Assembly (NCBI GenBank): GCA_016196035.1
Contig: JACPYM010000059.1
Coordinates: forward strand, 52,528-116,527
From: Acidobacteriota bacterium
GTDB lineage: Bacteria > Acidobacteriota > Blastocatellia > RBC074
Reading direction: 5' to 3'
DNA length: 64,000 bases
The notes under the pieces are model-generated. The model was not told the DNA's origin. It did no database searches and saw only the letters and a program-made list of their open reading frames with translations. Made by a program: the position numbers and the translations under genes. Every line of letters begins with the position of its first letter. The first letter of the stretch is position 1. Shown here one piece after another: positions 7,675 through 63,667 of this stretch.

Positions 7675-7689
7675 GCCGATGCGACTGAG

Positions 7690-7801
7690 AGGAGAGGAGA
7701 GAACGCGGAACACACGGAAATAACGGAAGACACAGAAAGATTCTTACGACTAGATTTTTCCGCTATTTCCGTTATTTCCGTGTGTTCCGCGTTCTCTCCT
7801 A
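7690..7801. repeat. Family C hairpin element (about 35-bp stem, ACGGAAATAACGGAA core), copy 1
   Basis: aggagagaacgcggaacacacggaaataacggaa ... ttccgttatttccgtgtgttccgcgttctctcct are reverse complements; related copy at 34628..34726. Confidence 0.7.
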
Positions 7802-13419: not shown

Positions 13420-13428
13420 CTTTGGTAA

Positions 13429-13536
13429 CCCTGGGTACGCAGCGCTTCCAGCGTGCAGTTTCGGCGGCAGACGCCTTCCTGCCGGAAGGAAAAGGTCAAT
13501 TGCCGAGACTGCACGCTGGAAGCGCTGCGTACCCAG
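13429..13536. repeat. Family A palindromic element copy A1 (29-bp inverted arms CCTGGGTACGCAGCGCTTCCAGCGTGCAG)
   Basis: Perfect inverted arms flanking ~50-nt loop with inner CCTTCC..GGAAGG hairpin, immediately after transporter stop. Confidence 0.8.
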
Positions 13537-13553
13537 ATTTGTTTGGAGTCTGC

Positions 13554-23584: not shown

Positions 23585-23690
23585 CCTGGGTACGTAGCGC
23601 TCAGCGTGCAGTCTCGGCATGAGATATTTTCCTTCCGGTAGGAAGGCGTCCGATGCCGAGACCGCACGCTGGAAGCGCTGCGTACCCAGG
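23585..23690. repeat. Family A palindromic element copy A2
   Basis: cctgggtacgtagcgctcagcgtgcag ... cgcacgctggaagcgctgcgtacccagg. Confidence 0.8.
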
Positions 23691-23700
23691 TTGACCCATC

Positions 23701-26063: not shown

Positions 26064-26759
26064 TTATTGCCCCTGCTGCATAAACTCTTTCAGTTCGCGC
26101 CCGGCCTTGGCGATGTGTTCTTCCAATAACCGGCTGGCGGCGGCGGCCTTGCGTTGACGGCACAATTCCAGAATCGTGCGGTGCTCGTCCTTGGCATTGC
26201 GGTGGGCCGCGTGCGAGAACAGGATGTGCAGGCGAATATAACGGTCGGCGTTGTTGTTGACCGTTTGAATCAGCGCGAGGGAGCGCCCGCGGTTGGCCGC
26301 GGCATAGAGCGCCGAATGAAATTGCCAATGCAAATCGCCCCAGACATCGAAATCCGCTTCATGGTTGAGCGCGTGTTCATAGGCTTGCAACGCCGCTTCG
26401 GCGCGGGTCAGGTGGGCAGCGGTCAGATGCGGCACGGCGCGGCGCAGCGTCAGGCTTTCGAGCACAGCGCGAATCTCGAAGAGTTCTTGGATCTCCTCCG
26501 CCGAGAGCGCGGTCACCACCGCGCCGCGATGATCTTGAATTTCGATCAAGCCTTCGGCCTCTAATTGGCGCATGGCCTCGCGCAGGGGAATGCGGCTGAC
26601 GGCGAATTCCTCGGCAATGGCGTGTTGGCGCAACTGCGTGCCCTCGCGCAATTCGCCGCGCAAAATCTTGTTGCGCAAGCGGTCGGCCACGGCAGTGGTG
26701 AGCGTCTGGCGGGGTATCGCCTGGCGCGGGGTGAGACTTCCGTTGATTGGTTCACTCAT
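26064..26759 (-). CDS. GntR-family (FadR/FCD subfamily) transcriptional regulator
   Basis: N-terminal wHTH 'EEFAVSRIPLREAMRQLEAEGLIEI' plus FCD-type C-domain. Confidence 0.8.
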   Translation of the reverse strand: MSEPINGSLTPRQAIPRQTLTTAVADRLRNKILRGELREGTQLRQHAIAEEFAVSRIPLREAMRQLEAEGLIEIQDHRGAVVTALSAEEIQELFEIRAVLESLTLRRAVPHLTAAHLTRAEAALQAYEHALNHEADFDVWGDLHWQFHSALYAAANRGRSLALIQTVNNNADRYIRLHILFSHAAHRNAKDEHRTILELCRQRKAAAASRLLEEHIAKAGRELKEFMQQGQ

Positions 26760-26799
26760 GGTTGTTTCTCGCAGCAATGCTAGTGCTTTTCAAATTAGC

Positions 26800-27078
26800 T
26801 CGGCTTTCACTTCGGTGTATGGAAAAACCGCGCAGCGGACGGTACCGCGCGCGTGAGCAAGCGGAGCCTGGGCGGTTCGGCCAACGGCGTAAACTTGACG
26901 CGCCGCTTGCTCACGCGCGCGGTACCGTCCCGGCCGCCGCGCCGCTTGCTCACGCGCGCGGTACCGTCCCGGCCTCACGCGCGCGGTACCGTCCCGGCCG
27001 CCGCGCCGCTTGCTCACGCGCGCGGTACCGTCCCGGCCGCCGCGCTCCCGTAAACGCAATTGCAAACCGGTCTAAGAG
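26800..27078. repeat. Family B element copy B1: 27-bp inverted arms (GGACGGTACCGCGCGCGTGAGCAAGCGG) with ~3.7 tandem copies of a 37-40-bp unit
   Basis: Tandem units 26901..27045 (cgccgcttgctcacgcgcgcggtaccgtcccggccgc); conserved termini tttcacttcggtgtatgg / cgtaaacgcaattgcaaaccggtctaag shared with B2, B3. Confidence 0.75.
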
Positions 27079-32485: not shown

Positions 32486-32490
32486 CTCTA

Positions 32491-32614
32491 CCTGGGTACG
32501 CACCGCTTCCAGCGTGCAGGCTTGGCATAAGACCGGCTGCGGCTGAAAGGAAATCCCTGCGGCCTTCATCCGTCTCTCGCCAAATCTGCACGCTGGAAGC
32601 GCTGCGTACCCAGG
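32491..32614. repeat. Family A palindromic element copy A3
   Basis: cctgggtacgcaccgcttccagcgtgcagg ... ctgcacgctggaagcgctgcgtacccagg directly after transporter stop. Confidence 0.8.
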
Positions 32615-34590: not shown

Positions 34591-34627
34591 TACACGGGCA
34601 TAGGTTGAGCTTTTTCGGAGGGCAGAA

Positions 34628-34726
34628 GAGAGATTACGGAACTGACGGAAATAACGGAACAGACAGAAGTCTTTCAGGTTTTCTTTTCCGTGTGTTCCGT
34701 TATTTCCGTCTGTTCCGTAATCTCAA
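34628..34726. repeat. Family C hairpin element copy C2
   Basis: gagattacggaactgacggaaataacggaacagac ... ttccgtgtgttccgttatttccgtctgttccgtaatctc. Confidence 0.7.
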
Positions 34727-34840
34727 AAAAGTCCTGGCTGAAAAGCTCAATCTATGACCGTGCGCGGTATCGCGCTCCCGGTTCTGTACTTGCACTCGTT
34801 TCAAACCTTCAATCACAAACCTGCCAGAAAATTCCCGCCC

Positions 34841-34861
34841 GATGACTTAAGTCACTGCCAA
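34841..34861. promoter_or_regulatory. Candidate operator: GATGACTTAAGTCACTGCCAA (perfect 12-bp palindrome TGACTTAAGTCA) ~90 bp upstream of ric
   Basis: 23-nt stretch identical to 38256..38278 upstream of flavoprotein-Rieske operon. Confidence 0.45.
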
Positions 34862-34940
34862 GCCGTGCCCTGCCGCCTACACTGCACGCATCGTCAAACT
34901 ATCTCAATACTTCTTGGTGAATCACTTGCAGGAGGCATTT

Positions 34941-36572: not shown

Positions 36573-36665
36573 CGCTGATGTTTTGATGCGCCGCGTCTTT
36601 GGAGCGCGTGCGGCACCGGCTGCCGCTTTGGCATCTCTTTGATCGTTCATACATCAAGGAAATAC

Positions 36666-36840
36666 TAGAGCGGTTTGCAGTTGCGTTTACGGGAGTCAGT
36701 TGACATTGGGACAGTACCGCGCGCGTGAGCAAGTGGCGCGTCAAGCTTGCCCCCTTGGCTGAATTGCCAAAGCGCCGCTTGCTCACGCGCGCGGTACTGT
36801 CCCGCTGCGCGGTTTTCCCGTACACCGTAGTGAAAACCGC
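36666..36840. repeat. Family B element copy B2 (inverted orientation, no tandem expansion)
   Basis: Termini are reverse complements of B1 termini; internal gacagtaccgcgcgcgtgagcaagtgg / ccgcttgctcacgcgcgcggtactgtc inverted arms. Confidence 0.7.
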
Positions 36841-36922
36841 TCTGAAGCGGCAGCCGGTGCCGCACGCACTCCAAAGGCTGCGCCTAGCCGATTTGCCCTC
36901 ATGGAATCGCGGGTAAATAACA

Positions 36923-38113: not shown

Positions 38114-38257
38114 CCTGGGAGCGCAGGCATCCCGCCTGCCGTCAAACAAAGCCGCGTAGCATCCTTATCTTGACGAAAAGGGTAAGGATGCTGCGCGCTT
38201 TTCTTATTTGCAGGCGGGACGCCTGCGCCCCCAGGAAATGCAAATAAATTTCGCACC

Positions 38258-38278
38258 GATGACTTAAGTCACTGCCAA
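38258..38278. promoter_or_regulatory. Candidate operator copy 2: GATGACTTAAGTCACTGCCAA ~150 bp upstream of flavoprotein gene
   Basis: Identical to 34841..34861. Confidence 0.45.
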
Positions 38279-38423
38279 CCGCCGCCCACCCGCGTAATTT
38301 ACGCTTTGACCAAGACCAACAATCCGGTCAGTTCCCTTCGACCCACTCGCGGAAGTCAGTGCGAGCCGAGCCGAATTTACGCAATCCAGGTAGCCCGAAA
38401 TTGGGCGGTTTGAGGCTGGCGCT

Positions 38424-40947: not shown

Positions 40948-41032
40948 CCGGGGACTAGCGGCTAGGGACTAGGGGCTGGAATTAAGCCACTGTCGCTAGC
41001 CCCTAGCCCCTGGCCTCTAACCCCTAAAAATT
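40948..41032. repeat. Intergenic CTAGGGG/CCCCTAG repeat hairpin (Rieske-cyt b spacer)
   Basis: gggactagcggctagggactaggggctgg ... gctagcccctagcccctggcc. Confidence 0.5.
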
Positions 41033-42349: not shown

Positions 42350-42436
42350 AGATGGGGGGCAGGGGGGCCAGGGGCCAGTGAATTCAAGCCCCAGCCCCCA
42401 GTCCCTAGACCCCAGCCCCCAAGATCGGAGGTTTTA
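42350..42436. repeat. Intergenic G-tract/C-tract hairpin (cyt b-cyt c spacer)
   Basis: ggggggcaggggggccaggggccag ... ccccagcccccagtccctagaccccagccccc. Confidence 0.5.
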
Positions 42437-43660: not shown

Positions 43661-43803
43661 CCTGGGTTCGCACGCTTCCCAGCGTGCTGTAAAAAAGTCG
43701 CGCAGCGTTCCGAATAAATTCAATTGGGTCGCACGCGATTTAGGGAAAAGGAAGGCTGCGCCGCTTCTTTCATAGCACGCAAGGATGCGTGCGTACCCAG
43801 GGA
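43661..43803. repeat. Family A palindromic element, degenerate copy A4
   Basis: cctgggttcgcacgcttcccagcgtgctg ... gcgtgcgtacccaggg. Confidence 0.6.
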
Positions 43804-45744: not shown

Positions 45745-45750
45745 TGAGGA

Positions 45751-45884
45751 GACCTCAGACCTCAGACTTCAGACCACAGACCTCAGACCTGTCTTGGATC
45801 GGCGGCCACAGGCGAATTGAGATCGTAGGTCTGAAGTCTGAAGTCTGAGGTCTGAGGTCTGAAGTCTGAGGTCTGAGGTCTGTG
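45751..45884. repeat. Heptamer-repeat hairpin: (CAGACCT)n arm, ~35-nt loop, (AGGTCTG/AAGTCTG)n arm ending at nosB-like start codon
   Basis: gacctcagacctcagacttcagaccacagacctcagacctg ... aggtctgaagtctgaagtctgaggtctgaggtctgaagtctgaggtctgaggtctg. Confidence 0.8.
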
Positions 45885-63230: not shown

Positions 63231-63564
63231 TGTTCTTCGCTTGAAAAAAAAATAAAGGCGCAGACGCGCTGTCGAAGCCAAGCTCCAACATTGCGCCTGC
63301 GCCAAAGGGGGCCGAGGCAGAGAGGGTAGCAGAGAAGAACTTCACGTCACATTGACCTGAACTCTCGTGACCACGTGTGCAGAATAGCCGCGCTTCCTTC
63401 CTCAGGCTGCGACGCGGGTCACAACGCCCGCGTGATGTTTGTCACGGCGCTGGCAGTTGGAATGAAAGCGTTGCAATGAACGCTTGCCGGGCAAAGTTGA
63501 CGCATTGTTGTCACTGTCGTTAGGCTGCCACCGCAAATTCGCGCTTCACTCCAATTCCATTAGA

Positions 63565-63660
63565 TCGGTTTTCACTTCAGTGTGCGGGAAAGCTGCGCTG
63601 CGGTACCGCACCGGTGCCAACTGCTTTTGTAAACGCAATGGCAAACTGATCTAAGAAAGG
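63565..63660. repeat. Family B element, short deletion-derivative copy B3
   Basis: ttttcacttcagtgtgcgggaaagctgcgctgcggtaccgc ... ttgtaaacgcaatggcaaactgatctaag matches both B1 termini. Confidence 0.55.
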
Positions 63661-63667
63661 CATGTTT

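Follow-up and report, generated by a model that had tools for sequence, protein, structure and literature searches.

The 64-kb stretch of DNA analyzed here (the window) contains three copies of a repeat, family B (B1, B2 and B3), all of which carry two common termini of about 25-29 nt. All three copies are intergenic, their neighbours are unrelated genes, and their orientation relative to these genes varies. B1 is located 36 nt upstream of a gene for a GntR/FCD regulator (26064-26759, minus strand) and follows an AraC-type gene at a distance of 138 nt. B2 separates two co-directional genes, encoding an ABC-2 permease and a protein with an FGE-sulfatase domain, and B3 is found in a divergent intergenic region, ending 8 nt before the ATG of an unknown ORF at 63662. 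The features of the three copies are as follows (IS: the related insertion sequence described below; IRL and IRR: its two ends; TIR: terminal inverted repeat):

26796..27074 (279 bp), minus strand (IS orientation, IRL to IRR): B1, complete copy of the probable MITE including both flanking TA, from alignment and terminus search
26796..26824, plus strand: B1 left terminus, TA and IRR-like TIR, TAGCTCGGCTTTCACTTCGGTGTATGGAA, 17/25 bases identical to the IS IRR
26837..26867, plus strand: B1 left arm of the inner GC-rich palindrome, from inverted-repeat search
26868..26899, plus strand: B1 loop or spacer of the inner palindrome, from inverted-repeat search and alignment
26900..27041, plus strand: B1 tandem array of the right arm, from tandem and inverted-repeat analysis
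27046..27074, minus strand: B1 right terminus, IRL-like TIR and TA, TAGACCGGTTTGCAATTGCGTTTACGGGA, 23/25 bases identical to the IS IRL
36597..36628, no strand assigned: left arm of an unrelated 32-nt inverted repeat enclosing B2, from inverted-repeat search
36666..36844 (179 bp), plus strand: B2, complete unexpanded copy of the probable MITE, inverted relative to B1
36666-36694, 36708-36739 and 36772-36803, 36816-36844: B2 IRL-like end, the two arms, and IRR-like end
36845..36876, no strand assigned: right arm of the same B2-enclosing inverted repeat, starting immediately after the B2 end
63561..63653 (93 bp), minus strand: B3, short deletion form, with termini at 63561-63589 and 63625-63653

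The preliminary description had claimed conserved termini in the three copies, and searches of the whole window bear this out. The right terminus GTAAACGCAATTGCAAACCG has three matches at up to three mismatches (27050+, 36671-, 63629+) compared to 0.02 expected, and the left terminus CGGTTTTCACTTCGGTGTACGG likewise three (26801+, 36818-, 63566+) compared to approximately none expected. No termini beyond the six of B1-B3 were detected when the whole window was searched with 29-nt terminus consensi allowing up to 8 substitutions. The outermost 25-29 nt or so of each copy are imperfect TIRs of the form TAGAGCGGTTT(G/T)CA..., which pair with each other in the predicted fold. The two TIRs of a copy are not identical, one being IRL-like (TAGAGCGGTTTGCAATTGCGTTTAC) and the other IRR-like (TAGAGCGGTTTTCAC), and among the six termini the left one of B1 is the most degenerate. 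The flanking dinucleotide is TA at both ends in B1 and B3; B2 has TA and TG.

Inside the termini, B1 and B2 have a GC-rich inverted pair in common, with arms of 31-32 nt that are 97% complementary and separated by 32 nt; in B1 these are the 31-nt arms at 26837-26867 and 26900-26930 (97% complementary). This pair had been described before as 27 bp long; the pair is real, its length needs to be corrected. Each element consists of two halves that are complementary in inverted orientation; the outer arms of B1 extend over 73 nt with 74% complementarity. B2 had been described as a full copy in opposite orientation without expansion, which is correct, the true bounds (36666-36844) being slightly wider. 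It folds as one long hairpin on either strand, with minimum free energies of -109 and -116 kcal/mol and z-scores of -9.5 and -11.6. B3 was thought to keep the termini only; both are indeed retained, and its interior in addition contains a small 7-bp hairpin at 63602-63618.

The right arm of B1 is present four times, with a 25-nt core CTCACGCGCGCGGTACCGTCCCGGC at 26910-26934, 26949-26973, 26974-26998 and 27013-27037. The cores are thus spaced by 39, 25 and 39 nt (TRF periods 39, 64 and 25), and the 64-nt blocks 26910-26973 and 26974-27037 show 100% identity. In the simplest and best reading of the array, a duplication of 39 nt came first and one of 64 nt second. The junctions of the array fall in short GC-rich direct repeats (GCGC / CCGCCGCGC). 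A CRISPR array is ruled out, as had been stated before, since a spacing of 39/25/39 for a unit of 25-39 nt leaves the units contiguous or overlapping, without unique spacers.

The same locus is present in an NCBI MAG contig (GCA_016179065.1, JACOSD010000026), which agrees with the window as far as position 26973. There a 39-nt unit follows where the window shows a 25-nt unit, placing the arms at 26910, 26949 and 26988 (3 x 39), and the contig ends inside the array. Because the MAG contig shows three 39-nt units and then stops, at least three B1 arms are reproducible across assemblies, and the exact arrangement differs between them. The tandem expansion claimed in the preliminary description therefore stands, with four copies of the right arm in the window and at least three in the second assembly. 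We consider it unlikely, albeit with a chance worth keeping in mind, that the expansion is in part an assembly artefact, that is, that the element is real and the 39/25/39 layout or the copy number results from short-read resolution of a short-period repeat. Besides the different layout in the MAG contig, three Logan assemblies stopping before or at the B1 left arm would fit such an artefact. However, two assemblies concur on at least three arms, and the 25-nt junction, at which GGC is followed by CTCAC, is impossible to obtain from a purely 39-nt periodic array and thus needs reads of its own. Furthermore, an element of a sister family (L131, see below) has an independent duplication of the right arm, which argues that arm duplication as a phenomenon is real and suggests that the palindrome, together with flanking microhomology, predisposes to slippage.

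The NCBI MAG and four Logan runs, which are independent short-read assemblies of the same organism, without exception stop within B1 or B2; by another count these breaks come from four independent samples or records. Such breaks are expected at multi-copy repeats. In one Logan contig (SRR12113414_61523, L171 about 1-22) the end expected to enter B1 reads AGATCGGAAGAGCACACGTCTG, an Illumina adapter, which is an assembly artefact at the repeat boundary.

The exact GntR protein encoded next to B1 is recorded at NCBI under 'Acidobacteria bacterium', and its nearest named relatives belong to Blastocatellia; for the AraC-type neighbour an exact-protein look-up gave no record. Contigs carrying GntR orthologues with 86% and 81% protein identity do not contain the element upstream of the gene; the 86% relative (L173-175) retains a short motif, CTAGCATTGCTG, beside the start codon. 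That the termini are merely conserved UTRs of the flanking genes, the reading that the preliminary description had named as its refutation, is rejected because the flanking genes are unrelated, the orientation differs and the element is missing from the orthologous GntR upstream regions. The regions upstream of the GntR orthologues contain other, unrelated repeats (L175 1-80; L176/L177 about 1000-1190), namely ATACGCAGAGCTTCGC...GCGAAGCTCTGCGTAT and CAGGAT-type units. Because these regions in the relatives carry other palindromic and short-unit repeats, intergenic hairpin repeats seem to be a general trait of the lineage. B2 is enclosed by the 32-nt inverted repeat at 36597-36628 and 36845-36876 (97% complementary), and the arrangement of the sequences makes B2 look like a nested insertion, placed in the loop of a hairpin that already existed downstream of the ABC-2 permease gene.

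Metagenomes were scanned with a terminus pattern, which yielded 44 loci of three kinds: insertion sequences, a sister MITE family and variants of the latter. Two loci from soil metagenomes (L156 and L146) are elements of approximately 1018 bp that are flanked by TA and have the ends TAGAGCGGTTTGCAGATCAGTTTAC and TAGAGCGGTTTGCGATTGCGTTTAC in inverted orientation; their bounding inverted repeats are of the form TAGAGCGGTTTGC.... They encode a 158-aa HTH protein (OrfA), matching HTH_32/HTH_23, and a 213-aa DDE_3 protein (OrfB), matching PF13358 with E-values of 8e-33 and 9e-35. The two reading frames overlap at a stretch of eight A residues (T when read on the opposite strand). By their sequence features, the two elements are classified as an IS630-family insertion sequence. 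Six more copies (L178, L182, L183, L185-187) were retrieved by similarity of the transposase protein only, independent of the DNA terminus pattern; they are 1016-1017 bp long and have the same IRL and IRR and TA flanks. Altogether, eight IS copies of 1016-1018 bp bounded by TIRs were found, and every IS end examined is flanked by TA, preceded by C in all cases but one, which has A.

Of 25 bases compared, the right termini of the three B copies have 21-24 in common with the IS IRL, and the left termini 17-20 with the IS IRR, including its GGTTTTCA signature. The similarity stops at the TIR, and the core of the MITE has no likeness to the interior of the IS. A tblastn search of the 64-kb window gave no homologue of the partner transposase, and neither B2 nor B3 is long enough for such a gene. 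The partner IS was not found in the samples from which the source derives; the closest transposases come from other soil samples. The nearest annotated relatives in plasmids are listed as 'IS630 family transposase' and reach only 66-71% over the transposase gene, with no named IS among them that matches the TIR sequence TAGAGCGGTTTGCGATTGCGTTTAC. Viral contigs gave one chance match in a phage coding region, in which the core motif is absent.

The insertion sites were compared for 21 non-redundant MITE copies. In every one of the 21, the left TA is preceded (5') by a pyrimidine and the right TA is followed (3') by a purine. Since the two flanking bases are not complementary within copies, the sequence comparison indicates that Y-TA-R is a target preference and not a longer TIR. 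The left TA itself is present in 19 of the 21 copies. This agrees with IS630/Tc1-mariner elements, which duplicate TA, often within CTAG (PMC2229807; PMC2170065). For the B copies we infer such a duplication only, because no precise empty site was found when the joined flanks of 28 copies were compared with all retrieved loci and because the right TA of the metagenome copies is fixed by the search pattern.

The sister MITE family combines the termini of family B with another palindromic core. Of the 44 metagenome matches, 23 belong to this family, with 18 distinct right flanks. An alignment was made from 14 distinct full-length copies (163-172 bp), in all of which the TIR stem is conserved. 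The variants of family B recur here: short forms of 76 bp (L160) and 93 bp (L128) mirror B3, and L131, with its independent 58-nt tandem duplication of the right arm, mirrors B1. Genome contigs were scanned as well, using a 16-base terminus pattern; only two of 120 loci are real relatives, one in a Blastocatellia MAG (L078) and one in a Binatia MAG (L037), and the remainder are chance matches. Both share the TA-flanked B-type termini and differ in the interior. Behind the same termini, at least five distinct cores are found (family B, the sister family, L127, L134 and L148/L151).

A terminus of the IRL type also occurs alone: at L132 2150-2181 (the same locus as L135, L161 and L162) a solo TAGATCAGTTTGCGATTGCGTTTACGGGAAAG lies immediately next to the ATG with which a gene for 305 aa starts. 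This remnant TIR provides a purine-rich stretch at the place where a ribosome-binding site would lie, and the junction between B3 and the ORF at 63662 is similar.

Taken together, we are highly confident that family B is a non-autonomous MITE of the IS630/Tc1-mariner type in an Acidobacteriota, probably Blastocatellia, genome, which diversifies by duplication and deletion, probably of the slippage type. The three copies of 279, 179 and 93 bp fall within the size range of bacterial MITEs of roughly 50-800 bp, contain no transposase gene, are dispersed beside unrelated genes, have TIRs longer than the minimum of 10-15 bp and share these TIRs with an IS; this IS in turn shows the hallmarks of the IS630 family, a DDE_3 transposase with N-terminal HTH in an element of 1016-1018 bp (about 1.0-1.4 kb in the family) bounded by TIRs. 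The earlier reading of a non-autonomous element undergoing internal amplification and deletion is thus supported by the IS630-type TIRs, the TA flanks in a Y-TA-R context, the lack of a transposase homologue in the window and the recurrence of the variants in the sister family. Family B appears to be undescribed for its lineage, yet ordinary in principle; no description of an IS630-type MITE in Acidobacteria was found in the literature searched.

A GC-rich palindromic core stands between the TIRs in place of a transposase gene. In the proposed mechanism, the element would be moved in trans, now or formerly, by the DDE transposase of the approximately 1017-bp IS with the same ends. As in the family in general, this enzyme would bind the TIRs via its N-terminal HTH, cut and paste the element and duplicate TA in a Y-TA-R target. 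The whole element could fold as one long hairpin, and its near-perfect inner palindrome and GC-rich direct repeats (GCGC / CCGCCGCGC) would favour replication slippage or template switching, which could have generated both the tandem right arms of B1 and the core deletion of B3. Current activity of family B is something that we infer; B1, with several mismatches in its left TIR, and B2, with its TA/TG flanks, may be immobile fossils. Given the dissimilarity of the MITE core to the IS interior, an origin from the IS by simple internal deletion would be conjectural.

The stems of these elements show paired changes. The inner stem reads ACGGT/ACCGT in B1 compared to ACAGT/ACTGT in B2, a compensatory difference, and 10 of 61 stem pairs are changed on both sides among the 14 sister copies; the inner stems stay perfectly paired through these changes. 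In the sister family the central loop occurs in both orientations (GGGAGCGGCCACTAC in L126, L129 and L166 versus GTAGTGGCCGCTCCC in L133, L136, L143 and others), suggesting that recombination between the arms, or template switching from one to the other, has inverted the loop. The compensatory changes leave room for an additional function. It is a rather doubtful proposition, but one that merits being spelled out, that the IS630-type TIR shell is a vehicle for diversifying GC-rich palindromic 'cargo' modules which are themselves under selection. This would fit because stems stay paired through changes on both sides, the loop is found in both orientations and arms are recurrently amplified. The changes on both sides and the two loop orientations could, on the other hand, come from either selection on the hairpin or homogenisation from arm to arm. 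If the palindromes were indeed such modules, the hairpin would act for the element or the host and would not be inert filler, for instance in TIR pairing for transposition, in transcription termination or insulation, or as a site of DNA-level recombination or cleavage.

The very stable fold of B2 and the compensatory stem changes in both families are also what a structured ncRNA gene or a host regulatory hairpin (terminator, RNA stabiliser or sRNA) would show, conserved for its function and not mobile. We regard this as highly improbable. Rfam 15 gave no match at gathering score in the whole window, B2 yielding only sub-threshold matches to generic miRNA hairpins, and both strands of the element fold equally well. 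Promoter and terminator scans of the family B elements revealed nothing above the shuffled background. Neither position nor orientation relative to the genes is uniform: B1 precedes one gene and follows another, B2 has co-directional genes on both sides, and B3 occupies a divergent promoter region. Furthermore, the element is missing at orthologous sites in relatives, and its termini are IS630 TIRs.

Hardly any weight is given to the explanation that the inner palindrome is a REP/REPIN spread by a RAYT (an IS200/IS605-like Y1 transposase), with a BIME-like array in B1 and incidental termini: an inverted doublet of GC-rich units of approximately 31 nt with a 32-nt spacer and extra tandem singlets in B1 does look superficially like REPIN or BIME, but the arm sequence is confined to the TIR shell, in the window as in the sister family, the arms read GGGACAGTACC... 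without the GTAG or CGTC head with which REP superfamilies have been described in one account (PMC3733652), and TIRs, TA flanks and a Y-TA-R target are not REP features.

The window contains further repeats beside the MITE. A second palindromic family, CCTGGGTACGCAGCGCTTCCAGCGTGCAG ... CTGCACGCTGGAAGCGCTGCGTACCCAGG, is present at 13424-13540, 23602-23696 and 32487-32614 (partial copy at 43775-43801) and is probably the 'family A' of the preliminary description. The stop codon of a long gene lies shortly before each of its three full copies; two of these genes encode CarboxypepD_reg/OMP beta-barrel proteins and one a GH31 protein. The family may be a terminator-like or REP-like element. In addition, intergenic hairpins consisting of inverted arrays of short tandem units were observed at 40951-41026, 42354-42421, 45750-45882, 7687-7800 and 34618-34724. 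Their units are GGGACTA/CTAGCCC, GGGGCCA/CCCCAGC, AGACCTC (six times) facing AGGTCTG (eight times), and a 9-mer of the GGAAATAAC type. Several of these hairpins separate genes of the Rieske / cytochrome b / nosZ cluster; the sequence of the unit varies by site and the architecture is constant. A 58-nt direct repeat, 76% identical, occurs at 34822-34879 and 38239-38296. It contains the palindrome TGACTTAAGTCA and lies in each case upstream of the first gene of a gene cluster. Possibly it serves a dimeric regulator as a shared operator or promoter element.

Family B has practical consequences. It fragments short-read assemblies of this acidobacterial lineage, contigs ending inside B1 or B2 in four datasets, and it generates spurious ORFs. 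Elements located within 8-40 nt of start codons, as at the GntR regulator and the ORF at 63662, could alter expression. An abundant repeat family of soil metagenomes is now linked to a specific IS of the IS630 clade. The result is of value for annotation and for explaining assembly breaks. The family is a small, clean example of MITE diversification by deletion, arm duplication and stem co-variation and involves no new principle.

Among known systems, Stowaway-type plant MITEs are non-autonomous elements derived from Tc1/mariner that duplicate TA, have TIRs in common with their mariner-like source and contain cores unrelated to the autonomous element. They are eukaryotic, unlike family B, which may resemble them in these traits. 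IS630-family insertion sequences such as IS630 and ISY100 (Tc1/mariner superfamily) have in common with the partner IS the DDE_3 domain with N-terminal HTH, TIRs flanked by TA and a YTAR/CTAG-like target; family B itself, in contrast, encodes nothing. A study of the ISY100 transposase describes binding of its TIRs through N-terminal HTH domains (PMC2170065). RUP (repeat unit of pneumococcus), mobilised by IS630-Spn1, is a gene-less intergenic element of 107 bp that has TIRs resembling those of an IS630-family IS, inserts at TA and forms a long stem-loop (PMC2229807). Family B is likewise a small gene-less intergenic element with IS630-type TIRs, TA flanks and a long stem-loop. It differs from RUP in its unrelated sequence and host phylum, in TIRs of approximately 25-29 nt compared to 9 contiguous bp, and in carrying a near-perfect GC-rich palindrome of its own inside the TIRs, which occurs in amplified and in deleted form. 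The Correia or NEMIS elements of Neisseria have TIRs of approximately 24-26 bp and TA termini, occur in forms of 155 and 107 bp that an internal deletion sets apart, and form a hairpin over the whole element (PMC2229807). Family B resembles them in the TA termini, the TIRs, the long and short forms and the whole-element hairpin. The review lists no matching IS for Correia (PMC2229807), whereas family B has a clear IS630-type counterpart, an unrelated sequence and tandem amplification of one arm.
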